64,000 bases of DNA from a virus. Lineage: Duplodnaviria > Heunggongvirae > Uroviricota > Caudoviricetes. The position numbers and the translations under genes are program-made. Below the pieces are notes generated by a model, which was not told the origin of the DNA, searched no databases, and saw only the letters and a program-made list of their open reading frames with translations. Location of the stretch: the IMG/VR virus record IMGVR_UViG_2660238580_000002; one strand, written 5' to 3'. Of the stretch, positions 16,782 through 30,299 are shown piece after piece. Each line of letters starts with the position of its first letter. Position 1 is the stretch's first letter.

Positions 16782-17572
16782 TTACGCCAGTTGTACGGAC
16801 ACGAACGCATCAGGGTCAGCCAGCAGCATCAGCGGTGCTGACTGAATCATGGTGAACTCACGCGCCGGATCGCCGGTGGTCACCCAGTTTTTCGGGTAAC
16901 GGGCAGAGGCGTTAATGCCTTCGCGCTGTGCGTCCGCATCCTGAATGCAGCCATAGGTGCGCAGACCGCGTGCCTGAGTGTTCCCCAGCACCATCGTGTT
17001 GTCCGGCAGGAAGTTCTTTTTGACGCCGTTTTCCACGTACTGTCCGGAATACACGACGATGGCCACATCGCCATACATCCCCTTATAGGACACCGCTTTG
17101 CCCAGGTCTTTCACCGCTGTCTCCAGCTCGGAATTAGAGCCACGACGGGTATCCAGCTTCTCCTTGACGGCTTTGAAGGAACGGAACAGCGCCCAGCCTT
17201 TCGGATCGAACACGATGATATTCACCACACCGCTGGCGTTCAGCGCGTAGGCTTCGATATCGTCGGTCGGGTCATACGTGGACTTGTCACGCTTGCTCCA
17301 CTCCGTGCCGCCGGACTGCGTGATGTTATTCTCCTCACTGCGGCCCATATCCACCTCAACCGGATCGAAGGCTTCACCGGTCATGGTGTATTTGCCCTTA
17401 AGCACGGCAGAAACTGCCTGCATCTCTTCGACCTGAGCAATGGCCAGCTCTTCGTCACGCATGTTCTGCATGATGATGCGACGGCGGCGGTAAGCCGGGT
17501 CCGCCAGATTCTGCGGATCTTCATCCGGCAGGCGACGCAGGGTCATCTGCGGATTCACTTCATGCTTCGGCT
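16782..17572 (-). pseudogene. E: Major capsid protein E, 3' fragment (from ...PKHEVNPQ to C-terminus), cut off from its 5' part by the satellite
   Basis: Reading frame continues lambda gpE from codon ~80 onward; no start codon or N-terminus here. Confidence 0.9.
17563..17572. repeat. Left junction direct repeat TGCTTCGGCT (att core within gene E)
   Basis: Identical 10-mer at 30000-30009; E-derived sequence stops being contiguous after it. Confidence 0.8.
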
Positions 17573-17706
17573 ACATGAGTCAAATATGAAAGGATGTGAA
17601 TGATTTGATTACGTTTTAGCTATAGAATTGAAATGGAAAATCCTTGAATGCAATACAACGTGCAATACATGGATGAAAACCATCACTCATTTAACAAGAG
17701 GAATCT

Positions 17707-18612
17707 ATGCGCTCACCCAACAGAATGCATGAACGCTCAACATTTTATAAGTATATGTCGTTGAATACCGCGAAGATTGTTCTTGATTCATGCAGCCTTA
17801 GATGGAGTTCTCCGGTCCTATTTAATGACCCTTTTGATGTTCCAAGAGAAGTTATGCCTGGTATTAACGAAATTAATATTGGCAAAGCTTTAGCCCGCAA
17901 GTTAATAGCGGAGTTGATTACCCCCAGAGAAGACATACAAAATTTAAACCCTAGAATTAGAACAATGCTAAGTGATTTCCAAAAGTCATTTCCTTTAGGC
18001 ATACCCGCAGGATTAATTGAAAGATTTCAAGAAATGGTAAACATTCCACCAGTTGGGATTGGCGCTCCTGCGGCAATACAAGAAATGAAAGATGTCTGGC
18101 GAGGAATGCTTAATAACAGAAGGATTTTGTGTTTATCTGAGAGCCCTATAATCACTCCTATGTGGAATCACTATGCCGATAAATATAAAGGTATAGTTAT
18201 CGAATTTGATTGTGTAGACTTTCTGGATAGCGCTTGGTTAATAGCCAAACCTATGAAATACACAGATAAAATGCCTCTAACTCACACTGCTGAAGGGATG
18301 GCCGAGTTGCTTTTCATGCCAGACAATAAGTCAATTGAATATATCAATAATGAGATAATATTCATAAAAACAGAAGAATGGGCATATGAAAGAGAGTGGA
18401 GAATTTCAACCTACGCTAGGCCAAATAGCACTGGTCAATATAGCGACTTAAAATTTCACCCTTTTGAGTTAAAATCTGTAATACTTGGTCCTCTTTTTGA
18501 TGCCAGCGAGTTCGATGAAGTCGCATCACTAGTTAAGATGTATCCAAGAGCGAAATTATTTAAAAGTTCATTTGGGAACGACAGAAAAATATCCATAGTA
18601 CCACTACCTTAA
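17707..18612 (+). CDS. DUF2971-like protein (uncharacterised satellite cargo)
   Basis: 301-aa ORF with motifs FYKYMS...LFNDPFD, YKGIVIEFD, EEWAYEREWR recalled as DUF2971 hallmarks; only plus-strand gene at this satellite end. Confidence 0.5.
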   Translation: MRSPNRMHERSTFYKYMSLNTAKIVLDSCSLRWSSPVLFNDPFDVPREVMPGINEINIGKALARKLIAELITPREDIQNLNPRIRTMLSDFQKSFPLGIPAGLIERFQEMVNIPPVGIGAPAAIQEMKDVWRGMLNNRRILCLSESPIITPMWNHYADKYKGIVIEFDCVDFLDSAWLIAKPMKYTDKMPLTHTAEGMAELLFMPDNKSIEYINNEIIFIKTEEWAYEREWRISTYARPNSTGQYSDLKFHPFELKSVILGPLFDASEFDEVASLVKMYPRAKLFKSSFGNDRKISIVPLP

Positions 18613-18718
18613 AAGGTCAAATGCTTTTGACAAATAAAATCTATCGCCAGTTTTACTGGCGACTTTTAAGCAACAAAGAACCACCTAAGCACTCTTCCTA
18701 CCTATGGTTTCATTTGTT

Positions 18719-19270
18719 TTAACTTCGCTGATTATCCTTGATATACCTTTCAGCCATATCTGGAATGTTATCTGAGATCTGGTAAGCTCGAATAAATGCT
18801 TTACTGACCTCCATCTTAATGAAGTCCTGATACCGTTTTTCCATGCCAGGAAACTGTCGACAGATCGCAAGTGGAAGACTATCAATGATTGCTCCAACTT
18901 CCCCAGTTAATTTCGACAAGGCATAAGTCGCAAATGCAGTGTCAATTACCTCACCTGTTTCGCTGGCATTCTTCAGTTCCTGTGCGTCGGCCTGCGCACG
19001 CGTAAGTCGATGGCGTTCGTACTCAATAGTCCCTGGCTGGAGATCTGCCTCGCTGGCCTGGCGCAGTTCTTCAACCTCCCGGCGCAGCTTTTCGTTCTCA
19101 ATTTCAGCATCCCTTTCGGCATACCATTTTATGACGGCGGCAGAGTCATAAAGCACCTCATTACCCTTGTCACCGCCTCGCAGAACGGGCATTCCCTGCT
19201 CCTGCTAGTTCTGAATGGTACGGATACTCGCACCGAAAATGTCAGCCAGCTGCTTTTTGTTGGCTTCCAT
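18719..19270 (-). pseudogene. Terminase small subunit Nu1 homologue with in-frame amber codon at codon 22
   Basis: ATG at 19270 reads MEANKKQLADIFGASIRTIQN then TAG (19205-19207) where helper Nu1 has TGG; ORF resumes at Met28. Confidence 0.8.
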
Positions 19271-19515
19271 TGTTCATTCCACGGACAAAACCAGAGAAAG
19301 GAAACGACAGAGGCCAAAAAGCCTGTTTTTAGCACCTGTCGTTTCCTTTCTTTTTAGGGGATGTTTTTAATAAAAACATTAAGTTACGGCGAAGAAGAAC
19401 GGAAACGCCTTAAACAGGAAAATTTTCACAAATAGCGAAAACCCGCGCGCCTGACGCCCCGTAGCCTGTCAGATCGCCGGAAAGGACCCGCCAGCCAGAG
19501 CGGGCCCTAATTTCA
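19271..19515 (-). promoter_or_regulatory. Satellite cos region (cosB-like conserved, cosN-equivalent divergent)
   Basis: Closely similar by eye to helper cos at 36190-36420, but the 12-mer at 19447-19458 differs from helper cosN at several positions. Confidence 0.6.
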
Positions 19516-19899
19516 TCAACCAATCAGCTTATAGCGACCATCCCGTGCATTGCGGCGTACACGCTCAATCTTGAGGCATAGCGCCGCATCTGGCTTTTTT
19601 GGGACAGGTACGCGGCAATATTCAGAAGCGCGAGGAATATTATTTATCCAGTCGATCACTTCACTTAAATACCAGGCCTTACGCCCTTCCGTAACCTGCA
19701 CACGCTCCGGGAACTCTCCACTAGCCTCAAGGTTTAGCAGTGTACGCCGACTCAGGGTTGTAATTTCCATCACCTGATTCATATCAACAAGGCGCTCGCT
19801 TAAACACATTTTGTCAGCGATAGCTTTTAATTCCTCTACAGCTGGATTCGGGTACATCATTTCGGCAATTGGCTTAAGGTCATTGTAATCATTCTGCAT
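19516..19899 (-). CDS. AlpA/excisionase-like HTH protein
   Basis: 127-aa ORF; C-terminal segment resembles AlpA-family HTH; lies next to satellite cos. Confidence 0.45.
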   Translation of the reverse strand: MQNDYNDLKPIAEMMYPNPAVEELKAIADKMCLSERLVDMNQVMEITTLSRRTLLNLEASGEFPERVQVTEGRKAWYLSEVIDWINNIPRASEYCRVPVPKKPDAALCLKIERVRRNARDGRYKLIG

Positions 19900-19910
19900 T
19901 GTATCCCCCT

Positions 19911-20252
19911 TTACACACGAGCCAGCGGCTGAACAGAAATACCTGAGCCAACAAACGCTGCAATCTTTACTGACAGTTCTTTTACAGACTCAGGCCAGTT
20001 CAGAGCATCAACATTTAAGACACCTGTCTTATAGACCTGAGCCCGTGTTTTTTTCGCGGTGTCGATTTGTACAGCGGAAACATAAACCGCTTTACCTACG
20101 CTCGAACCATCCCATACCACCAGTGCACCTGTTGCATCTTCCTGCATCAGTGGCGTAAATGCAGGAATTACCCCTTTATTAGCTGAAAATATCCCCAGCG
20201 TAGTCACCAGTGCTTCAGTGCCAGCCATGAGTTCAGTGTAATGAGTAGCCAT
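19911..20252 (-). CDS. Head decoration protein, gpD-like (satellite-encoded)
   Basis: 113 aa; aligns by eye with lambda gpD (PLM...WDG... core). Confidence 0.65.
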   Translation of the reverse strand: MATHYTELMAGTEALVTTLGIFSANKGVIPAFTPLMQEDATGALVVWDGSSVGKAVYVSAVQIDTAKKTRAQVYKTGVLNVDALNWPESVKELSVKIAAFVGSGISVQPLARV

Positions 20253-20261
20253 TGCTCCCCC

Positions 20262-21302
20262 TTAGCCAATGCGAACGGTAACAAAACGATTGATGCGGGC
20301 CGGTATTGGCTGTGGTGCTGAATGTGTCTGCACATATTCAATAGCCGGATCACCAGGTACAATATAGTTTTTCGGTGCAAGTTCGGCTTTAGTCAGCCCC
20401 ATTCGGATTAGCTCCGGATCCTGAATACCGCCATAGGCGACAATCCCCTGAAGAGCCGTATTGCCAAGCACCATCAAATCAGGATCAAGGAAATGTTTTT
20501 CTGTTCCGTCCTCGTCGGTATAACGCCCGCTGTAAACAACAATCGCAACATCGCCCATATACCCTTTAAAACTCACCGAATCACCAAGGTCTTTAAGGGC
20601 CGTTTCCAGTTCGGAATTAGAACCACGACGGGTATCCAAAGCCTCTTTTATCGCTCTGAATGAACGGTATTTCTTCCATACATTACCACCCATAATGATG
20701 ATATTAGTGACGCCCTCACTAAATTCTGCGTAGCTCTCAATATCATCATTTGGATCAAAAGTTTCTTTATCCTTACTTGACCACTCAGTACCGCCAGACT
20801 GAGTGATGATATTTTGTGGTTTTATATTCCAGTCCAGCTCATAACGTTCAATACCATCGCCCTCAATGATATTTTTCCCCGTTGTGATTGCCTGAACAGC
20901 AAGCCATTCAATACGTGCACGAATAGCTTTAGCTTGATTTACAATCGCCTGTTTAACTTTAATATTACGCGCCCCAAAAGCATTGTATTGCTCAGGTGAT
21001 ACACCAGCAGGGCGCACAGCTAACTTATTTGGATCAATGCTGCTTTTCGGCTTCATATAGCCTGGACGAATTGTTTTTGATTCGTACCCTTCGTCACGTG
21101 AAACTTTACTACCCACCATAGGAGAACAAAACGCTGCAATTGGGATATTTGGATCGTCGATTGTATCAAGAATAATATCGCGCGATTCAAACATTACCGA
21201 GCGAGTAAAAAACAAACTGGTAAACAACGCATTTAGTTGTTTTTGTACATCTACAGCATTAACCACCTGTACAAGCTGGGTAGGCGAATATAAATCAACC
21301 AT
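20262..21302 (-). CDS. Major capsid protein, gpE-like (satellite-encoded, divergent)
   Basis: ~347 aa from Met with AGAGGA RBS; C-terminal half close to lambda gpE (ITQSGGTEWS...DTRRGSNSELETA...), N-terminal half divergent. Confidence 0.75.
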   Translation of the reverse strand: MVDLYSPTQLVQVVNAVDVQKQLNALFTSLFFTRSVMFESRDIILDTIDDPNIPIAAFCSPMVGSKVSRDEGYESKTIRPGYMKPKSSIDPNKLAVRPAGVSPEQYNAFGARNIKVKQAIVNQAKAIRARIEWLAVQAITTGKNIIEGDGIERYELDWNIKPQNIITQSGGTEWSSKDKETFDPNDDIESYAEFSEGVTNIIIMGGNVWKKYRSFRAIKEALDTRRGSNSELETALKDLGDSVSFKGYMGDVAIVVYSGRYTDEDGTEKHFLDPDLMVLGNTALQGIVAYGGIQDPELIRMGLTKAELAPKNYIVPGDPAIEYVQTHSAPQPIPARINRFVTVRIG

Positions 21303-21587
21303 ACACATCCTCTTTGCATTCATTAAAAATAATTGTGGATATATGCTATCACCAATATTTGTCATGCGAATACATGCAACCGAGTGCAATGTTGTATAAA
21401 GTTTTGGGATGACAACTTCAGCGCGGATAATTAGTGTTAATATATTCACTCCCTTTGGTCGGGATTTATGTAGCATGCCGGAAAATTTATTTTTTCCGGC
21501 CTTTTTTATTGGCAATATTTAAAACGGAATATCATCTCCCCATTGCTCATTATCTCCCACTGGTGGATGGCTTCCTTGCTGATCTGC

Positions 21588-21968
21588 CTATTGTTTTGCT
21601 CTGTTCAGTGCGTCAGTAGCCTGACCCTGTTGACCTTTTTTGCCGCCCGGTCGCACCGTTCGCGCACTGATTACGCTGTCTGCGATAACCTGCCAGCCCT
21701 GCCGCGTTTCACCGTTCTGTCCAGTCCACTGGCTCACCTGCATGTTACCCGCCACGCTCAGGAGTTCGCCTTTGTGATGCTTTGCCAGCGCATCGGCTTG
21801 TCTGCCAAACGCCAGCACAGATAACCACATCGTCGCCGTTCCGTCATCTGCCTGGCTGCATGGCAAAGATACCGCCATCCGTGCCAGTGTCATGGGTGTT
21901 CCCTTGCTGGTATGTTTTACCTGTGGGTCGTCCACCAGCCGCCCGTAAGCTGCTATTTGCGCCGTCAT
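21588..21968 (-). CDS. SSB-like OB-fold protein
   Basis: 126-aa ORF with SSB-like pattern (W..VLAFGRQA..L.KG..L.V.G); weak. Confidence 0.4.
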   Translation of the reverse strand: MTAQIAAYGRLVDDPQVKHTSKGTPMTLARMAVSLPCSQADDGTATMWLSVLAFGRQADALAKHHKGELLSVAGNMQVSQWTGQNGETRQGWQVIADSVISARTVRPGGKKGQQGQATDALNRAKQ

Positions 21969-21979
21969 GCTGCCTGCTC

Positions 21980-22222
21980 TCAGGACTTAATATTGATGGT
22001 TGTCACTTCCTCCGCTTCGGCAATCTCCCGTTCGGTCAGCGTGGCAAAGTTTGCAGCCGCCGTTGTCATGAATGCGCTTATCAGTTCGGGATGTGCTTTC
22101 GCGTATCCTTCCCCGGCGTTGCGGTCTATTGCCTTAATCGCCACCCTTAGCCAGTGTTCAGCCATATCAAGGGCGCGGTAATGTGGCTTTATATGTTTGT
22201 TCAGTTTTCCTGATGTGTGCAT
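21980..22222 (-). CDS. Hypothetical protein
   Basis: 80-aa ORF between ori and SSB-like gene. Confidence 0.4.
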   Translation of the reverse strand: MHTSGKLNKHIKPHYRALDMAEHWLRVAIKAIDRNAGEGYAKAHPELISAFMTTAAANFATLTEREIAEAEEVTTINIKS

Positions 22223-22259
22223 TTTTATTTTTACCCCCTCGTTTAAAAAGTTTTTTGTG

Positions 22260-22500
22260 CACCACCACCTTGTCTACCTTGTCTACCTGATTAGTTATCA
22301 GGCCAGTAATGGCGCGGGTTTCAGAGAGGTAGACAGCCCCAAATAGCTGTCTACCTCATCTCTACCCGTCTCCTTACCTGTCTACAAAAATGGGTAGATA
22401 AGGTAGATAACAGGTAGACAGTGAAAAATAGTTATCTACCTGCATTAATACATTGAAATAAAAGTATTTTATTTCAGTCAGGTAGACAAGGTAGATAACC
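22260..22500. repeat. Satellite replication origin: ~12 iterons (GGTAGA[C/T]A core, both orientations) around an AT-rich tract
   Basis: Repeated gtctacc/ggtagac motifs directly upstream of pri-rep. Confidence 0.8.
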
Positions 22501-22511
22501 ATTGCCATTTT

Positions 22512-24263
22512 TTATAAAAACGCATCGCAATCATCAGTAGTCGTTGCGTTGGTCTGAGTGACTCCCTTAACTTTTCGCGTAATATATTCATATCCGTAAA
22601 CTTTCGCCGCTGACCTCATAGCCTTTCCGAACTCATTCACGCTCAAACATTTCCCCTTTCCTGTATATGCCATGAAGGCCATATAGACACGGTAAAGGCT
22701 GTTTCTGGTCGTGTACTTCACGGTGTCACCACCACCGCCCATCATTAGCCCACGAGCTTCCTCCAGAAACTCCAGCGCCGCGCAAAGCTCAACAACCGGA
22801 TCCGTTTGCTGCTTTATTGCCAGAGCTTCATCACCGTCACGCTGTTCCAGTAATAAAGCCCGTGCCTTTTCAGGGTCAGCAAAATTAGCCAGCAAGCGGC
22901 GGATAATTACGGGGATTTCTGCCGCTATCTTTTCCGGTAATTCCTTGTCTTTTTCGTCCTCCCTTACAATGTTGTCGAACCGGAAAATCACCCGACGGCG
23001 TGACACACCTCCGGCCCGTTCGGTAAAGATCATCGGGTCGTTATTGGTTGCCAGTACCACCGCCCTTATTATCGTCGTGAATCGCTTCTCATATTTCGGG
23101 TTAATTTCAACGGGATCGCCTCCCGTGATTTTCTTGATGCCCGTGCCTTCCCCCGTATATTTCGGCTGATCGGCAAGGACGATAAGACGACTCCCGACAA
23201 CCTGCGCGCGCCCTCCTGCATCATCGAGTGATGTCATCTCTGCGCTTACGGTGTTCTGTTTGCCAGCAAGCAGGGTGGCAATATGAGTAAATGTGCTCTT
23301 TCCGCTTCCCCCGTCTCCGGTGGCCTCAATGAACATCTGCCAGTCGTAGCGGTTCGCCATAATCATGTATAACGCGGCACATATACGCATCATCTTGCGC
23401 GGGTCTTTTCCTGCAGCATGTTCAAGCCATTTATGGAAATTTGGCGCATTATCGCGGATGTTTTCCCCTGCTACTGGTGGCGTGTACTCAATACCATTGT
23501 GCGTGGTGCTCCAGTGCTCCGGCGAGTGCGGAGAAAATTCCCCCGTTTTCAGATTAAGCACACCATTAGTGAACGGTAGCAAATCACCGGACGGCTCCCC
23601 CATGGGGGCGGCAATAACTTTTAACGCTTCCACGGCGTTATTGATTACGCGCTTGCTGAACGTGGCCCTGTGCTCTGAATAGATCGCCACCATTTCGCGG
23701 CTCAGCTCCATTGTGCTGACCGGACACCATACCCCGCCGCGCCATACGTGGACGATTTCACTTTCTGCATGAACACAAACACCATCAAAGCGATCGGCAA
23801 GTAGTTGTGCCCGCTCACTGTCTGCCATCTGTGAAAGTTGCGCCTTTTGCTTCGTCGGAAGATTAAGCACCAGGCTTTCCCCACGCTCGCATTCCTCTTT
23901 GAGTCGCGGCAACTGGTCGGATAAATCCACTGGGCTGGTGTCAGTAATCCCCGCGTATTCGTGTACGGTCTTCACTCCAGCCACAGCCAGTAACGTAACA
24001 ATCTGCGTCATGCTGTGCTCTGTGATATGTCCTGCGCGGTAAACACGCACACACTGACGATCTTCATCAATGATCCGGTAATCGGTGATGTTTTTCAGTT
24101 GCTCATCAGCCAACACGACAGGCGGCACATCGTCGGCGGCAATATGTTTACCCGCCCATTCCTGCCACTCTTTCGCATGGCTCCACGCATCACTACCTGC
24201 AAAGATGATTACCTCTGTCAGTCTGTCGCGTGGCTGTTTTTTTAAGTTCGGTGCCAGTTTCAT
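22512..24263 (-). CDS. Primase/helicase replication protein (Pri-Rep, P4-primase family)
   Basis: 583-aa ORF with P-loop GDGGSGKST and helicase-like C-terminus; adjacent iteron ori. Confidence 0.8.
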   Translation of the reverse strand: MKLAPNLKKQPRDRLTEVIIFAGSDAWSHAKEWQEWAGKHIAADDVPPVVLADEQLKNITDYRIIDEDRQCVRVYRAGHITEHSMTQIVTLLAVAGVKTVHEYAGITDTSPVDLSDQLPRLKEECERGESLVLNLPTKQKAQLSQMADSERAQLLADRFDGVCVHAESEIVHVWRGGVWCPVSTMELSREMVAIYSEHRATFSKRVINNAVEALKVIAAPMGEPSGDLLPFTNGVLNLKTGEFSPHSPEHWSTTHNGIEYTPPVAGENIRDNAPNFHKWLEHAAGKDPRKMMRICAALYMIMANRYDWQMFIEATGDGGSGKSTFTHIATLLAGKQNTVSAEMTSLDDAGGRAQVVGSRLIVLADQPKYTGEGTGIKKITGGDPVEINPKYEKRFTTIIRAVVLATNNDPMIFTERAGGVSRRRVIFRFDNIVREDEKDKELPEKIAAEIPVIIRRLLANFADPEKARALLLEQRDGDEALAIKQQTDPVVELCAALEFLEEARGLMMGGGGDTVKYTTRNSLYRVYMAFMAYTGKGKCLSVNEFGKAMRSAAKVYGYEYITRKVKGVTQTNATTTDDCDAFL

Positions 24264-24559
24264 TTTTTGCCCCTGAATGCGTTAATCATGCTTTTCATTT
24301 TCTGGATGTTTCCCCGCGCTTTTTCCCTGCTGATGGGCTTACTGCGGGGTGCGGCATATACCAGGGAAAAATCACGCCGGAACTGATAAACAGGCATCAC
24401 GCAGTCATAGCTATACCCCTCACGACGGTAAGTGATGCGCCGTTCTGCCACGCCTTTAATCGTTACCGTGCCGCCGTATTTATCGCGGTAAATATCGCCG
24501 TTCATAAATTCAGGCCGAGCGGGGCCGCTGGCAATAAAGCCAGAATTTTTCATTTCCAT
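24260..24559 (-). CDS. Hypothetical satellite protein
   Basis: 99-aa ORF, stop overlaps pri-rep start. Confidence 0.5.
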   Translation of the reverse strand: MEMKNSGFIASGPARPEFMNGDIYRDKYGGTVTIKGVAERRITYRREGYSYDCVMPVYQFRRDFSLVYAAPRSKPISREKARGNIQKMKSMINAFRGKK

Positions 24560-24576
24560 ATTATTTATTCCTCGAC

Positions 24577-24798
24577 TTAACTCGACTTATTTGATAGCAG
24601 GGCACTATTTATTGCGTCATTGAGTTTTTCTGCTGCTTCATCAATAAGTGACAACAGGCCATAAGCAATATTTGCATCTTCATTGTCATTTATGCAATCA
24701 AGCCACATATTTAATATTGCTTTTGCTGAATTATTTAAAGTTAATGAACTTTCTGCACATGCTAACAATTTAAAAAAGACTTCCCGTTCTGTATTCAT
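24577..24798 (-). CDS. Hypothetical satellite protein
   Basis: 73-aa ORF in minus-strand operon. Confidence 0.4.
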   Translation of the reverse strand: MNTEREVFFKLLACAESSLTLNNSAKAILNMWLDCINDNEDANIAYGLLSLIDEAAEKLNDAINSALLSNKSS

Positions 24799-24990
24799 TT
24801 AATCCCCCACCAGCTTACTTTCTTCCTCAATCAAAAAACTAGCGACACTTCCCGAAAGACGCGCCAGTAGGCTCGCCAGTGCGGATATATCAGCATCTGT
24901 AATTTTGTTCGGGTATACCTCAAGAAGGCGGCAAATAATTTCTGTCTGGTGCGCACGTTCAGCGGCTTCGTGTAATGTGATTTCCTGCAT
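24799..24990 (-). CDS. Hypothetical satellite protein
   Basis: 63-aa ORF in minus-strand operon. Confidence 0.4.
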   Translation of the reverse strand: MQEITLHEAAERAHQTEIICRLLEVYPNKITDADISALASLLARLSGSVASFLIEEESKLVGD

Positions 24991-25182
24991 TAATGCACCT
25001 CTTTTAATTCATACACTGCTGAAATAATGACTTGTGATAAGCCATATTCTGATGATTCGCTTCTCACCGCAGCAATAGCCGTCTGAACATTAACAGCCTT
25101 CACGTTCTGAGCGATACCAATTGTGTGGCCTAGTGGGTTAACCGCACGAGCAAATACACGGAAGGTTTTAAGCACGGCATAC
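24990..25182 (-). pseudogene. Satellite ORF body separated from its start by IS629
   Basis: Frame is open across the IS629 target site but has no ATG downstream of the insertion; the track ORF borrows IS sequence for its N-terminus. Confidence 0.4.
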
Positions 25183-25224
25183 TGAACCGCCCCGGGTTTC
25201 CTGGAGAGTGTTTTATCTGTGAAC

Positions 25225-26115
25225 TCAGGCTGCCAGATCATCGTTTCCGATGGAAGCATAATAAGCTTTTTCTGCTTCTGCCGGAGGAGTATGGCCCAGC
25301 CTTTCCAGCAATCGTCGATTGTTATACCAGTCCACCCACGTGAGTGTGGCCAGTTCCACTTCTGCACGGTTTTTCCAGCTCTTACGGTGTATTACCTCCG
25401 CTTTGTAAAGACCATTGATGCTCTCCGCCATCGCGTTGTCATACGAGTCGCCTGTACTTCCTGTTGATGCCAGTAATCCGGCTTCCTTAAGCCGCTGTGT
25501 GTAGGCCAGCGATACATACTGAGAACCTTTATCACTGTGATGGACCGTGCCGGACGGTCGACGGGCCCATAACGCCTGCTCCAGTGCATCCAGCACGAAT
25601 GTCGTTTCCATGGACGATGAGACCCGCCACCCCACGATGTATCCGGCAAACACATCAATGATGAACGCCACATAGACGAAGCCCCGCCATGTGCTGACGT
25701 AAGTAAAATCAGCCACCCACAGCTGGTCAGGTCGTTCTGCCACGAACTGACGGTTTACGCGGTCGCCTGCGGCAACGGCTTTCCGGCTGATGGTCGTACG
25801 GACCTTTTTACCCCGGAGAACACCGGCAAGTCCCATAACCGCCATGAGACGTGCCACAGTGCATCTGGCCACTCTGATACCTTCCCGTAACAACTGACGC
25901 CAGACTTTACGCACACCGTATACCTTGTGATTTTCATCGTATACGCGCTGTATCTCTTTCTTCAGCCAGTCATCGCGCTGCGCACGGGCACTGCGTTTAT
26001 CCGGATGATGTCGCTGTTGCTGACAGTGGTAATACGTTGACGGGGCAATATGCAGTTCGCTGCATAGCGGTCCGACCCCGTACTGCTCACGCAGCTTATC
26101 CAGCAGTGGCATCAT
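25225..26115 (-). CDS. IS629 transposase OrfB (DDE, made as OrfAB by frameshift)
   Basis: 296-aa [21 protein letters not shown]... Confidence 0.9.
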
Positions 26116-26438
26116 TTTTTCCAGAGGCGGTCGAACTCCGCCTTCGCAAAATAAGCGGAAGCCTGGCGAAGGATATCGTTACTGCGGCGCAGTTCACGAT
26201 TTTCACGTTCCAGCTCTTTCAGACGCTGACGTTCAGCGGTGGTGAGCCCTCCATCACCGCCCCCGGTATCCCGCTCATGCTGGCGAACCCAGACACGCAG
26301 AGTCTCCGGCGTACAGCCAATCTTTGGAGCAATGGAACAAATTGTCGCCCATTGTGAGTCATATTCGCTCTGACTTTCCAGAACCATACGGACTGCCCGT
26401 TGACGGACTTCGGGGGAAAAACGAGTATTTTTAGTCAT
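26112..26438 (-). CDS. IS629 OrfA
   Basis: 108-aa [22 protein letters not shown]... Confidence 0.9.
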
Positions 26439-26492
26439 CCTGTTTACCTCTTTCTCAGGAAGTTTAGTCTCCAGGATTCCCGGGGCGGTTCA

Positions 26493-26684
26493 TACCTCCT
26501 GACGAATACGGGCGGCAAATATCATCACGCAGCCAGTTGGGGATTGTTGGCGGGCTTCCTGTTCGCTGGCGGCCTCGATGTGTATTACGCGTGGTTGTGC
26601 GGTGCTCAGGGCGATAAAACGCCAGATGTATTTATTCAGGTTGTGCGGGTCCCGCCCTTGCGGGTGTGTGGTATGATTTCTCAT
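26493..26684 (-). CDS. Small satellite protein, last 3 codons replaced by IS629 end
   Basis: 64-aa ORF; stop codon supplied by the IS terminus. Confidence 0.45.
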
Positions 26685-26779
26685 AGCTATCTCGATACTG
26701 TTGCTATCGTTGGTGGTTAGAAGCCCGTTGGTGTTCCTAGCGCCTTCGGGCTTTGCTTTTTTAAGTGCCTCCGTGTTAA

Positions 26780-26823
26780 GGTGGTCACCTAACAGTAAAA
26801 AGGCTAATTCAATAGGTGGTCAC
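26780..26823 (+). promoter_or_regulatory. Two GGTGGTCAC direct repeats (operator-like) in the divergent promoter region
   Basis: Identical 9-mers at 26780-26788 and 26815-26823, 35 bp apart, upstream of the RHH gene. Confidence 0.35.
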
Positions 26824-27015
26824 TTGTCAACAATCAAACGCGATAAAAGTCCTAAGGGTGATGGGCAATCTCCACAATTCAGAATGCGAATTTCTCCAGA
26901 GCTAAAAGAGCAATTCGACAAAGAAGCGCAGAGCGACGGCATAAGCCTAGCCAACTGGCTTAAAGAATTAGGGCGCAAAGAGCTGCTACGGCGCGGTATT
27001 GAACCAAAAGGATAA
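26824..27015 (+). CDS. Ribbon-helix-helix (Arc/MetJ-like) DNA-binding protein, candidate satellite repressor
   Basis: RHH-like FRMRISPELKEQFDKEA...LANWLKELG; possible TTG start after AGGTGG (ATG alternative at 26884); divergent from leftward operon. Confidence 0.45.
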   Translation: MSTIKRDKSPKGDGQSPQFRMRISPELKEQFDKEAQSDGISLANWLKELGRKELLRRGIEPKG

Positions 27016-27042
27016 GAGTAATTGAAGTCAAGGAGCTAACAC

Positions 27043-27399
27043 ATGAAATACGAATTCTTCGCAACAAGTAGCAGTAGTTTGGATGTATACATAGTCACTG
27101 TATCAAACGATTCTAGCTCGCTAATCATGACTTGCAATTGTCCAGCAGGAAGTAAAGGTATTCTATGTAGACACCGTAAAGCTTTAATTACCGGAAAAAT
27201 CCGTGGTATATTCACTCCCCCAAGAAGGAATAATCCCGAAAAGTTACAAGAAGCTATAAATTTAATAACCACATATGGCATAGATAAAACATTAAAGTTG
27301 TACACTGATGAGTTAGAACGAGCAGAACAGACTTGGATAAGTGTTCGCGATAATTTGAGAGCAATGATAAACGCTCTTGTTGAACCACCTAAATATTGA
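27043..27399 (+). CDS. SWIM-zinc-finger-like small protein
   Basis: 118-aa ORF with CNCPAGSKGILCRH (CxCxnCxH). Confidence 0.4.
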   Translation: MKYEFFATSSSSLDVYIVTVSNDSSSLIMTCNCPAGSKGILCRHRKALITGKIRGIFTPPRRNNPEKLQEAINLITTYGIDKTLKLYTDELERAEQTWISVRDNLRAMINALVEPPKY

Positions 27400-27530
27400 A
27401 CTGTTCACATTGCCTATCAGTCGACAACCTCGTATTCTGATTAAGGCTAACTATATACTCACATTGGCGACCAATTCTGGTCGCCTTTATCCACCATTTT
27501 TATAACATCATAGATTAAAAGTGTTAATCC

Positions 27531-28361
27531 TTACCCCCTGAATGGAATTGATGAGGATTTAATTTCCACTGAACTAAATCCTTTTGAATCCAAGAACATT
27601 TTTATACCAGCCTCAATGAAATCATAATCGTTTGTCGGGCCAATAGTAATACTTTTAATTGGTAACTTCCTATGATCTTTATTACCAATGATGATATAAG
27701 GGATGACACCATTATTATTTATTCTGAATTGCACATCTGGTATTAGTATGCGCGGAGTAAATACCAATCTAAATTCATTTTCTTCGATAAAACTAGGATG
27801 TTTAAAAAATGGGATGTATTTAGATATAAATTGATACGTAGAGGCCATTGTTACAAAATGATCATTCTTTTCTTTAATATTAATACCATTACAAGAAAAA
27901 AACGCCCCCAACTCCTTACTCATCTTAGTAACATCGTTATTATTTGAATATATAACATCATGTGCAACACAATTTAAATAAATATTTTGAGAAAAGCTCA
28001 CAAGTTCATCCGCATCAAACTCAATGCAAACACCCTGTTTATTTCCGTAACCTCTCCACTGACTTAACTTATCGTTTTCCTTACAAAAAGAGATGCTATA
28101 AACATGTTTATCAATCCCTTTTTCTTTTTGTAACCTCCCTTTCTCATACATGTCAAGAGACTTGAGCAAAATAGTTTTCTTATCTTTTGGAATGATATTG
28201 TCATCAACTATTTTAATTGTATTTCGAAAGCATTCACATCCATGGTTAGACTCCTCTTTATCATTTAAGAAATATATGTTTGTAGCCCATAAAGAATTAG
28301 AGTCTAATATACCTTTCAAACCAAAAAGATCTGTATAATGAAATATAGCCACAATGCCCAC
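27531..28361 (-). CDS. DUF2971-like protein (second copy; cargo downstream of alpA)
   Basis: 276-aa ORF with FHYTDL...LWATNIYFLNDKEE, SQWRGYG..GVCIEFD, FIEENEFRL motifs. Confidence 0.5.
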   Translation of the reverse strand: MGIVAIFHYTDLFGLKGILDSNSLWATNIYFLNDKEESNHGCECFRNTIKIVDDNIIPKDKKTILLKSLDMYEKGRLQKEKGIDKHVYSISFCKENDKLSQWRGYGNKQGVCIEFDADELVSFSQNIYLNCVAHDVIYSNNNDVTKMSKELGAFFSCNGINIKEKNDHFVTMASTYQFISKYIPFFKHPSFIEENEFRLVFTPRILIPDVQFRINNNGVIPYIIIGNKDHRKLPIKSITIGPTNDYDFIEAGIKMFLDSKGFSSVEIKSSSIPFRG

Positions 28362-28368
28362 CTAATAG

Positions 28369-28599
28369 TTAAGTTGTTTCCCACTCACCTCGAATCCATG
28401 CCTGCACTTCTGAAAGACGATATGCAACAGCAGTGGAACCAATCTTGATCCGCTTAGGAAATTTTCCTTCCTTCTCCAGCTTCCAGCGTGTGCTGTTCGC
28501 AAGAGTGGTTAGCTCCCGACATTCTTTCTCACGGATCATTCGGTCAATGTTAGGAATGTACTCCAGACCCTTTTTATCAACAATTGCCATTTTTTTCAT
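28369..28599 (-). CDS. alpA: AlpA-family transcriptional regulator
   Basis: 76-aa ORF directly downstream of int, AlpA-like HTH. Confidence 0.75.
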   Translation of the reverse strand: MKKMAIVDKKGLEYIPNIDRMIREKECRELTTLANSTRWKLEKEGKFPKRIKIGSTAVAYRLSEVQAWIRGEWETT

Positions 28600-28600
28600 G

Positions 28601-29836
28601 TTAACCAGCCTTTTGTTTGAGGATTGTCACTTTTGAATCAGCACCTGCGATGCTATTGAGATATGTAGTCCAGAGTTCCAGAGCATCCAGTTTTTTAGCC
28701 ATAAACTTACTCCGGTTGTAAACACCTGCCACGCCAGGTAGCGCATGGCCTAACAGTTGTTCTACTACATAAAATTCAACACCGAGATCACTTAGATGAG
28801 TAGATAGCGTTCTTCTAAGGTCGTGTAGTGACCATTGTTTTTCATGGCCCAAACGTTTACCGATTTTCCCCCCAATCTTGCTTACGCTTTCTCTAATTCG
28901 CAGACTTCCCAGCACATAACCAGTATGTTTTGTCTCTTCGTGAACATCCGTTACCCACTGTCGTAGAATTTCAGGTACTGGTCTGACGATTTCAACACCG
29001 GTTTTTGAGTGTTCTTTTGGTACAGTCCAAACCCAACTTTCTAGATCCCATTCGCTCCATTCTGATAATCGGGCTTCACTCATTCGACATCCAAATACTG
29101 TACAAAGCACAAACATTTTTCGCGTGTATTCAGACATTAGTTTTAAATCAGGCTCGACAAAAATTGCCTTCCAGAGCTGGCCCAGTTCGGCTTCATCCAG
29201 AACCCGATCCCGCTTACCTGCAATCTGCCCCACATCACTCATGCGCAAATCCTTTAAAGCATCACACGTCGCGTACTGGCGTACCCGACAAAAACGAAGA
29301 GCTAATTTAGTGTCAGAAAAAACATACGCCGCCATAACTGGTGCATTACGTTTAATTCGGTCAAAACAGTCCAGCCATTCATATAGGTGAGTGTCATTTA
29401 CGGGCAAATGACCGATATAGGGAAAGATATGCTTTCGAAATCTGCCAAGCGTTACAGCATGAGTTTTACGACGCACCTTACAGTAATTTTCATACCAGTA
29501 ATTTAGTGCATCCTCCACTGTGACCGGCTTTAAGCGTTCTTCAGCCTGAATCTTAATCTGGATACGCGGATCACGTTTGTCAGCCAACCAACCACGGCAC
29601 TCGTCGCGCTTTTCTCTTGCCTGTTTGAGTGACATATCAGGATATTTACCCAACGTTAGCCAGACCGGAGCAGCCCGGCCACCTGCTAACCTGTAGAAGA
29701 AAACAAAGCTCACAGCCCCCTTAGTACTCACACGAATAGAAAGCCCCTTTCCATCAGCAATGGTGATCTGCTTTTCTCTGGGTTTCCCCAGATATCCTTT
29801 AAGCGCTTTGTCGCTCAGTTTGTTCTCGCCAGCCAT
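28601..29836 (-). CDS. int: Tyrosine integrase (P4-type)
   Basis: 411 aa from MAGENKLSDKALKGY; catalytic HDLRRT...LGH...Y region; adjacent to right att repeat. Confidence 0.9.
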   Translation of the reverse strand: MAGENKLSDKALKGYLGKPREKQITIADGKGLSIRVSTKGAVSFVFFYRLAGGRAAPVWLTLGKYPDMSLKQAREKRDECRGWLADKRDPRIQIKIQAEERLKPVTVEDALNYWYENYCKVRRKTHAVTLGRFRKHIFPYIGHLPVNDTHLYEWLDCFDRIKRNAPVMAAYVFSDTKLALRFCRVRQYATCDALKDLRMSDVGQIAGKRDRVLDEAELGQLWKAIFVEPDLKLMSEYTRKMFVLCTVFGCRMSEARLSEWSEWDLESWVWTVPKEHSKTGVEIVRPVPEILRQWVTDVHEETKHTGYVLGSLRIRESVSKIGGKIGKRLGHEKQWSLHDLRRTLSTHLSDLGVEFYVVEQLLGHALPGVAGVYNRSKFMAKKLDALELWTTYLNSIAGADSKVTILKQKAG

Positions 29837-29968
29837 TTTTAGCCCCAAAAAGCAATACAAGCTGCAATACAGAGATGATTGCAACACACAGATAACGAGG
29901 AAAATCCAGTGAAAGCGCCAGATAATCTTATTCTTTATTATCAAAGAATTAAGTGTAAAAACCAGCAA

Positions 29969-30244
29969 CTACACGAAAGCCTCAGAAAGCCATGCTAAGT
30001 GCTTCGGCTTGACATATCCCGGCGTAAATTCAGAGGTGGAGCCGCCACGGGAACGGATAACCTCACCGGAAACAATCGGCGAAACGTACAGCGCCATGTT
30101 TACCAGTCCCGGAATTTGTGAGAGATAGACTTTCTCCGTGGTGAAGGGATAGCTCTCACGGAAAAAGAGACACAGAAACAGCGGATCAAACTTAAATTTC
30201 TGCTCATTTGCCGCCAGCAGTTGGGCGGTTGTGTACATCGACAT
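29969..30244 (-). pseudogene. E: Major capsid protein E, 5' fragment (codons 1-82 fused to 9 satellite codons and a stop)
   Basis: MSMYTTAQLLAANEQKFKFDPLF...GYVKPKH then LAWLSEAFV*. Confidence 0.9.
30000..30009. repeat. Right junction direct repeat TGCTTCGGCT (att core within gene E)
   Basis: Identical to 17563-17572; E sequence resumes immediately after. Confidence 0.8.
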
Positions 30245-30299
30245 AAAAAAATCCCGTAAAAAAAGCCGCACAGGCGGCCTTTAGTGATGAAGGGTAAAG

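Follow-up and report, generated by a model that had tools for sequence, protein, structure and literature searches.

A divergent DUF2971 gene downstream of alpA in a helper-embedded phage satellite is a single-gene cassette with a predicted ADP-ribosyltransferase fold

The gene considered here lies in a phage satellite inserted in a lambda-like prophage, within a 64,000-nucleotide stretch of Caudoviricetes DNA (IMG/VR virus record IMGVR_UViG_2660238580_000002, called the window below). It belongs to the DUF2971 family, follows the integrase gene (int) and alpA of the satellite on the same strand, and has a distant relative at the other variable end of the satellite, beside the small terminase gene (terS). 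We refer to the two as the alpA-side and the terS-side gene. The features of immediate concern are these:

27531..28352, minus strand: alpA-side DUF2971-family gene, 273 amino acids (aa), predicted ADP-ribosyltransferase fold
28358..28363, minus strand: Shine-Dalgarno-like AGGTGG, 5 nucleotides (nt) upstream of GTG 28352, read from the sequence
28369..28599, minus strand: alpA (excisionase/activator), Pfam Phage_AlpA 3e-15
28601..29836, minus strand: satellite tyrosine integrase, 411 aa in RefSeq, Pfam Arm-DNA-bind_3 and Phage_integrase
17707..18612, plus strand: second, terS-side DUF2971 gene, 301 aa, PADLOC PDC-S31 subfamily, in the slot after terS

The minus-strand open reading frame (ORF) of the alpA-side gene spans 27531..28361 in the ORF list, and its upstream-most start codon, GTG 28361, falls within the Shine-Dalgarno-like AGGTGG (28363-28358). 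The likely start is GTG 28352, giving 273 rather than 276 aa, and 273 aa is also the RefSeq length of the gene in other E. coli genomes (WP_016247984.1) and in most close homologues. The ORF of 27531-28361 reported in an earlier note on this DNA thus stands, while its length of 276 aa probably does not. That note had also placed the ORF directly 3' of alpA on the same strand without saying which strand; int, alpA and the ORF are all on the minus strand. Between the int stop and the alpA start lies a single base, and 16 nt separate the alpA stop from GTG 28352; a consensus scan of this 16-nt gap found no promoter-like or terminator-like site. E. coli alleles of the gene differ by 2.6-5.2% of nucleotides, with ratios of nonsynonymous to synonymous change (dN/dS) of 0.11-0.44 and intact frames in all copies compared, and the gene is on these comparisons intact and under purifying selection. 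The amino-acid differences between alleles cluster at R201W, I202M, L203Q, I204M and Q208H, in the loop after the ExE strand, and the window allele carries a local group of replacements at residues 201-208; this patch could be a specificity determinant.

Both DUF2971 genes score above the Pfam gathering threshold for the family (PF11185, 22 bits), the alpA-side ORF with 46.5 bits (E 9.8e-12) and the ORF at 17707-18612 with 40 bits (E 1e-9), and both match phrog_1762 over their own full length (1e-27 and 1e-68, respectively). Compared directly by BLASTP, the two proteins are 21% identical over 167 aa (E 5e-5), and alignment by hhalign of family profiles built from 63 alpA-side and 54 terS-side homologues gives a probability of 95% (E 2.6e-8) over 233 columns. 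The two proteins are, by these alignments, homologous along their whole length. The conserved positions common to both families, in alpA-side and terS-side numbering, are:

H5-Y6 / K15-Y16, on strand 1
N30-D31 / N40-D41
W99..Y102 / W153..Y156
K184 / K221
E191-x-E193-x-R195 / E228-x-E230-x-R232
G238-P239 / G261-P262

The pairwise and profile alignments therefore bear out the earlier statement that the two genes carry the same motif set with little overall identity. Among the 63 aligned alpA-side sequences, H5 is present in at least 90%, and Y6, Y102, E191 and E193 are invariant; the window ORF keeps all 20 family-invariant residues. The candidate defence model PDC-S31 of PADLOC matches the terS-side ORF strongly (2e-32, model positions 5-246 of 259), whereas its match to the alpA-side ORF (1.3e-5) covers positions 93-174, that is 82 of 259, well short of the full length. 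Because of this difference, and because the homologue lists of the two ORFs do not overlap, the genes are assigned to distinct subfamilies of one family.

On sequence similarity, DUF2971 has been assigned to the superfamily of ADP-ribosyltransferases, close to DarT, AbiGi and Tox-ART-HYD1, with a modified H-Y-E motif that consists of a poorly conserved histidine (motif I), a strictly conserved tyrosine and an ExE (PMC12522546). H5, Y6, Y102 and E191/E193 of the alpA-side family agree with this motif set. A Pfam scan of the alpA-side ORF to E 10 returned, besides DUF2971, a single match, a sub-threshold one to Tox-ART-HYD1 (E 0.048). AlphaFold models made from the family alignments have a mean predicted local distance difference test score (pLDDT) of 89.1 for the alpA-side and 94.0 for the terS-side protein, and the best structural matches of both are the DNA ADP-ribosyltransferase DarT and Tpt1, at moderate similarity. 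In the alpA-side model, H5-Y6 lies on strand 1 and the ExE at the predicted start of strand 193-200, and large helical inserts occupy residues 31-74 and 141-182. The alpA-side protein is thus predicted to have an ADP-ribosyltransferase fold whose closest solved relatives are the nucleic-acid-modifying enzymes DarT and Tpt1. An absence of a common fold, which the earlier note had named as an outcome that would refute its view, is not what was found, since both models match the same DarT and Tpt1 structures; the two were compared only through these shared Protein Data Bank (PDB) matches. A search of the sequences of solved structures with the family alignment gave chance matches to GABA receptors only, through an 'LW..FLND' word, and brought up no solved DUF2971 structure. 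Foldseek against the predicted viral structures of BFVD returned uncharacterised proteins only, with low TM-scores.

The place of the gene was examined in 67 IMG/VR loci (numbered with L below) with an integrase 89-100% identical to that of the window, and the content after alpA was compared in the 66 loci that retain alpA. Homology of the sister satellites to the window ends in the last codons of alpA (28378-28394), which marks the upstream breakpoint of a variable slot, and at least 13 unrelated cargoes follow alpA among the 66 loci. The main ones, with their strand relative to alpA, are:

178-aa membrane protein: 20 loci, opposite strand, no match
DUF2971: 11 loci (9 with the SWIM gene), same strand, Pfam DUF2971
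CAP12/TIR protein: 7 loci, same strand, candidate PDC-S35 (5e-67)
putAbiC (AbiC-like) protein: 5 loci, opposite strand, Pfam putAbiC
241-aa protein: 4 loci, opposite strand, no match
PD-T7-1: 3 loci, opposite strand, E 7e-151
HNH nuclease-like protein: 3 loci, same strand, PDC-M68A (7e-28)
Rarer cargo: a DUF5677 protein, a DUF3800 protein and several proteins without a match

At least six cargo types lie on the strand opposite to alpA. With conserved flanks and interchangeable content that includes known defence systems, the slot after alpA qualifies, in its gene content, as a defence hotspot. The earlier note had asked for this comparison and would have given up its view had related satellites carried unrelated genes without any link to defence; unrelated genes are indeed present, and many of them are validated or candidate defence genes. 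The commonest occupant, the 178-aa predicted membrane protein (cluster C5; L017, L019, L021 and others), matches nothing in Pfam or PADLOC and comes as a pair with a ribbon-helix-helix-like gene of 100 aa. Further slot genes without a Pfam or PADLOC match encode 241, 273-275, 305 and 467 aa, and the unmatched cargo is found at L059/L061 (C58), L067 (C128), L040 (C69), L058 (C113) and L046 (C33).

Beyond the DUF2971 gene, at and past the downstream edge of the cassette, lie the following features:

27466..27485: hairpin GGCGACC-AGAATT-GGTCGCC with a 7-bp stem, between the convergent DUF2971 and SWIM genes, found in the sequence
27043..27399, plus strand: small SWIM zinc-finger gene, convergent with DUF2971, Pfam SWIM 3.2e-5, phrog_13130 2.5e-81
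26701..27015, plus strand: ribbon-helix-helix/HicB-like small regulator, true start probably later, weak HicB match

In L067, an unrelated gene of 273 aa takes the place of DUF2971, and of nothing else, between the end of alpA and the hairpin; homology to the window resumes at 27488 and the SWIM gene is kept. Because this locus swaps DUF2971 by itself, the gene is, on the comparison of these loci, a single-gene cassette, with the hairpin, T-rich on its plus-strand side only, as its apparent downstream edge. The SWIM gene, which has a weak partial PADLOC match to PDC-S62 (3.4e-5), stands beside DUF2971 in all E. coli copies and also remains where DUF2971 has been swapped out. We considered it as an obligate partner or antitoxin and rejected it, as it is present in L067 without DUF2971 and DUF2971 is present without it in L049, L056 and L003. 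The adjoining regulator flanks the variable slot in many satellites, where clusters C8 and C16 recur, and its homologue in L076 matches HicB, Arc and RHH_1.

The other variable zone, after terS, was surveyed in the 29 IMG/VR loci that reach the C-terminal fragment of the interrupted capsid gene, and holds at least nine cargo types. The terS-side DUF2971 gene lies there on the strand opposite to the rest of the satellite. The occupants include:

AbiJ-like: 6 loci
301-aa DUF2971: 5 loci
Unannotated 322-aa protein: 4 loci
Unannotated 438-aa protein: 4 loci
Unannotated 229-aa protein: 3 loci
HEPN and GmrSD_N pair (NsnA 9e-60, PD-T4-2_A 1e-38): 2 loci
TIR protein: 2 loci
Mrr-type nuclease (Mrr_cat): 1 locus

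With hypervariable slots after both alpA and terS, the description of one paralogue at each variable end of the satellite was correct in substance. Clusters K13, K15 and K10 of the terS slot (322, 438 and 229 aa) have no Pfam or PADLOC match. By position, the unmatched compact genes of both slots are candidates for new anti-phage genes.

The element that carries these slots extends from about 17562 to 30009 and interrupts the lambda-like major capsid gene E of the prophage. Its boundaries and related features are:

29969-30271, minus strand: N-terminal fragment of the prophage E gene (ORF list)
16782-17558, minus strand: C-terminal fragment of the prophage E gene (ORF list)
17562..17570: attachment (att) core GCCGAAGCA, where the satellite meets the C-terminal part of E (sequence)
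29999..30009: att core where the satellite meets the N-terminal part of E (sequence)
17649..17669, minus strand: doubled motif TGTATTGCAnnnTGTATTGCA, about 83 bp from the att core (pattern search)
29851..29871, minus strand: second copy of the doubled motif TGTATTGCAnnnTGTATTGCA, about 132 bp from the att core (pattern search)
18719-19273, minus strand: Nu1-like small terminase gene (terS)
25225-26115 and 26112-26438: ORFs of an IS3-family element
26041-26157: IS3 ALIL frameshift pseudoknot (Rfam)

RefSeq copies from other genomes label both fragments of E as partial 'major capsid protein'. The satellite encodes int, alpA, a P4-type primase, a single-stranded DNA-binding protein (SSB), a second AlpA-like regulator and the Nu1-like small terminase, together with its own captured late genes for E-like capsid and D-like decoration proteins. 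Since int, alpA, the primase and the interrupted E gene are all on the minus strand, the satellite is co-directional with the late operon of its helper. Tommasini, Mageeney and Williams (2023, PMC10111431) described helper-embedded phage-inducible chromosomal islands (PICIs) in which a doubled motif tgTGTATTGCantgTGTATTGCa lies roughly 81 bp and roughly 132 bp away from the centre of attP. The window element resembles them in its int-alpA-primase module co-directional with the interrupted E, in the doubled TGTATTGCA roughly 83 and 132 bp away from the att core (two pattern matches against 0.31 expected by chance), and in its E- and D-like late genes. Because the att core, the spacing of the doubled motif and the order and orientation of the genes all fit, the host element is, from its sequence, assigned to the published helper-embedded PICI type of site E:Phage_cap_E. 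That study differs in describing what follows alpA as a dynamic 'Bro zone' rather than a slot for defence genes, and its main text, as searched, uses 'defense' once and 'cargo' never. Of 5426 complete E. coli genomes, 179 carry the satellite integrase. The window copy has suffered an IS3-family insertion (about 25183-26490), between the small regulators and the replication operon, that is missing from clean copies such as L001. Scanned with Rfam, the satellite gave the IS3 frameshift pseudoknot only, and no P4-like immunity RNA. In addition, an in-frame stop in terS (…IQN*QEQG…) removes the N-terminal 26 residues, so this copy may be unable to direct its own packaging; RefSeq annotates terS as a pseudogene in L001 too, and the gene is intact in L075.

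The alpA-side subfamily recurs well beyond this satellite. An IMG/VR set of homologues at least 36% identical to the alpA-side protein comprises 22 loci, in 17 of which the gene lies just downstream of an int-alpA pair, with integrase identity down to about 50%. One more lies after an unrelated integrase (24% identical), itself followed by a similar primase module, with no alpA detected. In L091 and L093, alpA and the DUF2971 gene stand about 500 nt apart. Klebsiella aerogenes has a homologue (59% identical) within another type of helper-embedded satellite, one that adjoins the terminase gene of its helper. This satellite (L003/L004; CP142846.1, CP142848.1) has a DUF927 primase and a ClpP-capsid fusion, and appears in the same assembly both integrated by the prophage terminase gene and as a separate 10.5-kb circular record, which suggests an excised form caught by sequencing. 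Enterobacter homologues (43-47% identical; L005-L007, L076) follow alpA plus an additional gene of 254-255 aa that has no family match and may be a lineage-specific partner or a second cargo; as a general partner it was discarded, being absent in E. coli and Klebsiella. The subfamily is also found on 547 plasmids. For example, a K. pneumoniae IncFIB plasmid holds a remnant with the order AlpA-AlpA-DUF2971 flanked by IS5 copies, and on an E. coli IncI plasmid the neighbours of DUF2971 include an 'abortive infection family' gene as well as a DUF3800 gene. Elsewhere, a Deinococcus homologue stands beside an MmeI restriction-modification gene and a Symbiopectobacterium homologue among toxin-antitoxin modules. 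The plasmid and chromosomal sites rule out a clade exclusive to satellites. No neighbour is conserved across the Klebsiella, Enterobacter, Symbiopectobacterium, E. soli and Deinococcus contexts. No macrodomain protein (DarG) was found in any context examined, the window neighbours being alpA and the SWIM gene.

Among known systems, the nearest is Aristaios, a 316-aa DUF2971 protein of the Lactococcus plasmid pUCCL641 that acts as a single-gene system resembling abortive infection (Abi) systems (Grafakou et al. 2024, PMC11381338) and prevents phage transcription or protein production (PMC11381338, PMC13064643, PMC12967558). It is the only DUF2971 protein with experimental anti-phage evidence in the literature searched. 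The alpA-side gene is like it in being a single DUF2971 gene with a predicted ADP-ribosyltransferase fold on a mobile element, and in standing alone without a conserved partner, as the L067 swap and the varying neighbours across genera indicate; it differs in belonging to an enterobacterial phage satellite rather than a Gram-positive plasmid, a comparison made by description. PDC-S31 is likewise a single-gene DUF2971 defence candidate, of which the terS-side copy is a clear member; the alpA-side ORF belongs to a separate subfamily, and PDC-S31 is itself a prediction whose name was not found in the literature searched. DarT of DarTG systems shares reported sequence similarity with DUF2971 (PMC12522546), whereas the alpA-side gene has no adjacent DarG, no Pfam DarT match and large helical inserts, and stands alone. 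The slots themselves resemble the satellite hotspots at P4 psu-int (Rousset et al. 2022, PMC9122126) and in the accessory regions of PICIs (de Sousa et al. 2023, PMC10085698) in that conserved flanks enclose interchangeable defence genes, although those belong to other satellite lineages with other flanking genes; the accessory positions in that literature correspond to both slots seen here.

Taken together, we consider it probable (about 0.6) that the alpA-side gene is an intact DUF2971 single-gene cassette of predicted ADP-ribosyltransferase fold, carried by a helper-embedded PICI and acting as a stand-alone, Abi-type anti-phage effector; this last, inferred by analogy, is its most likely function. 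During infection the protein would, with NAD+, ADP-ribosylate either nucleic acid or some part of the expression machinery, which would lead to shutdown of phage gene expression, and the helical inserts at 31-74 and 141-182 are a candidate regulatory or sensing part of the model. The gene is probably transcribed with int-alpA, which is plausible and the simplest reading of the layout given the shared strand, the 16-nt gap and the lack of a detected promoter or terminator. Read-through from the helper late promoter may also transcribe it, since the satellite is co-directional with the interrupted late operon. Such coupling to int-alpA is not general to the slot, because several cargo types face the other way. 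Several points weigh against an anti-phage effector: the ORF has no Pfam DarT match at E up to 10, the DUF2971 candidate models of PADLOC (PDC-S31) match it weakly and partially, no antitoxin or immunity gene is evident for a presumed toxic enzyme, and about one third of the slot occupants, including the commonest, have no recognisable defence annotation. Furthermore, expression only with alpA would leave the gene off in a resting lysogen, which fits the satellite's own cycle better than standing immunity.

The earlier note had left open whether the two DUF2971 genes are separately acquired cargo or a two-component arrangement. Among complete E. coli genomes the alpA-side gene occurs in 36 and the terS-side gene in 33, the former alone in 28 and the latter alone in 25. 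They occur together in eight, against 6.6 expected under independence among the 179 genomes with the integrase (odds ratio 1.35, p 0.48), a statistic that treats genomes as independent, which phylogenetically they are not, and assumes all carriers to be among the 179. Each gene is also seen alone with other cargo in the opposite slot (L002, L075). Mostly apart and each replaced singly, the two are by this distribution separate cargo, acquired and exchanged independently, as the first of the two options held. That they act together, for example as a heteromer or as sensor and effector, would suit their shared family and predicted fold and their joint presence in this satellite and in the eight genomes. 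This proposal is nevertheless largely refuted by the distribution: co-occurrence fits independence, single carriers predominate on both sides, either copy is replaced by other cargo without the other, the genes lie 9 kb apart on opposite strands, and two of the eight genomes with both genes have an alpA-side copy whose match extends over just 73% of its length. We regard it as the least credible of the explanations weighed. Hardly better is the idea of a catalytically inert or decaying cargo without current function, to which the damage elsewhere in this copy (the IS3-family element at about 25.2-26.5 kb and the in-frame stop in terS) lends some colour; an intact ORF with every family-invariant residue, dN/dS below 0.5 and a high-confidence model make it very improbable.

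A more substantial rival takes the position beside alpA at face value. The gene would then serve the satellite life cycle as a weapon rather than give the host standing immunity: turned on together with alpA, or through late read-through from the helper, it would harm the DNA or the expression of the helper and let the satellite win packaging. The close spacing to alpA on the same strand, with no promoter detected in the gap, the post-int-alpA position in 17 of 22 homologue loci, and the AlpA-AlpA-DUF2971 order on the K. pneumoniae plasmid all favour it, as do the passive receipt of helper-driven late transcription by helper-embedded PICIs (PMC10111431) and the block of DNA replication by DarT-like enzymes (PMC12522546). 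However, the slot houses many unrelated genes in either orientation, validated host-defence systems among them; the satellite can do without the gene, which 80% of its E. coli copies lack; the same clade appears in plasmid and chromosomal defence-like clusters without alpA; and the gap of about 500 nt in L091 and L093 loosens the tie. We judge it unlikely. Somewhat less likely still is the proposal that the alpA-side clade is wired to satellite induction, transcription from the AlpA-activated promoter or read-through from the helper late promoter being the sensor of infection or induction and the DarT-like nucleic-acid ADP-ribosyltransferase selectively crippling DNA or transcripts of the helper or of a competitor phage while the satellite escapes; if true, this would be a transcriptionally triggered toxin without antitoxin, lodged in the helper's capsid gene. 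Finally, the protein might be an addiction toxin that kills cells from which the satellite has been lost, or a counter-defence enzyme that ADP-ribosylates host defence proteins and aids establishment of the satellite or helper. The fold is typical of toxins and the Symbiopectobacterium homologue keeps company with toxin-antitoxin modules, but no conserved adjacent cognate antitoxin gene was present in the contexts examined, the other slot occupants indicate defence, and no similarity to known anti-defence proteins was found, all of which leaves these roles decidedly doubtful. A stand-alone anti-phage effector therefore remains our preferred reading.

The satellite type, the existence of defence hotspots in satellites and DUF2971 as an ADP-ribosyltransferase-like anti-phage domain are already published. 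Possibly new are a divergent DUF2971 subfamily, repeatedly found behind alpA in diverse PICIs and barely detected by current defence-finder models, and a catalogue of at least 13 plus at least nine cargo types in which both variable zones emerge as defence hotspots rich in unannotated candidates; for this helper-embedded family such a catalogue appears unpublished in the literature searched. Through the E. coli satellite, two divergent DUF2971 genes become available in a host amenable to genetics, with natural 'swap' controls for each in the form of the same satellite backbone with other cargo, and the two-hotspot result may be of more use than the single gene. Current concepts are left unchanged by these findings, which extend satellite hotspots and ADP-ribosyltransferase-based immunity to a known satellite type.

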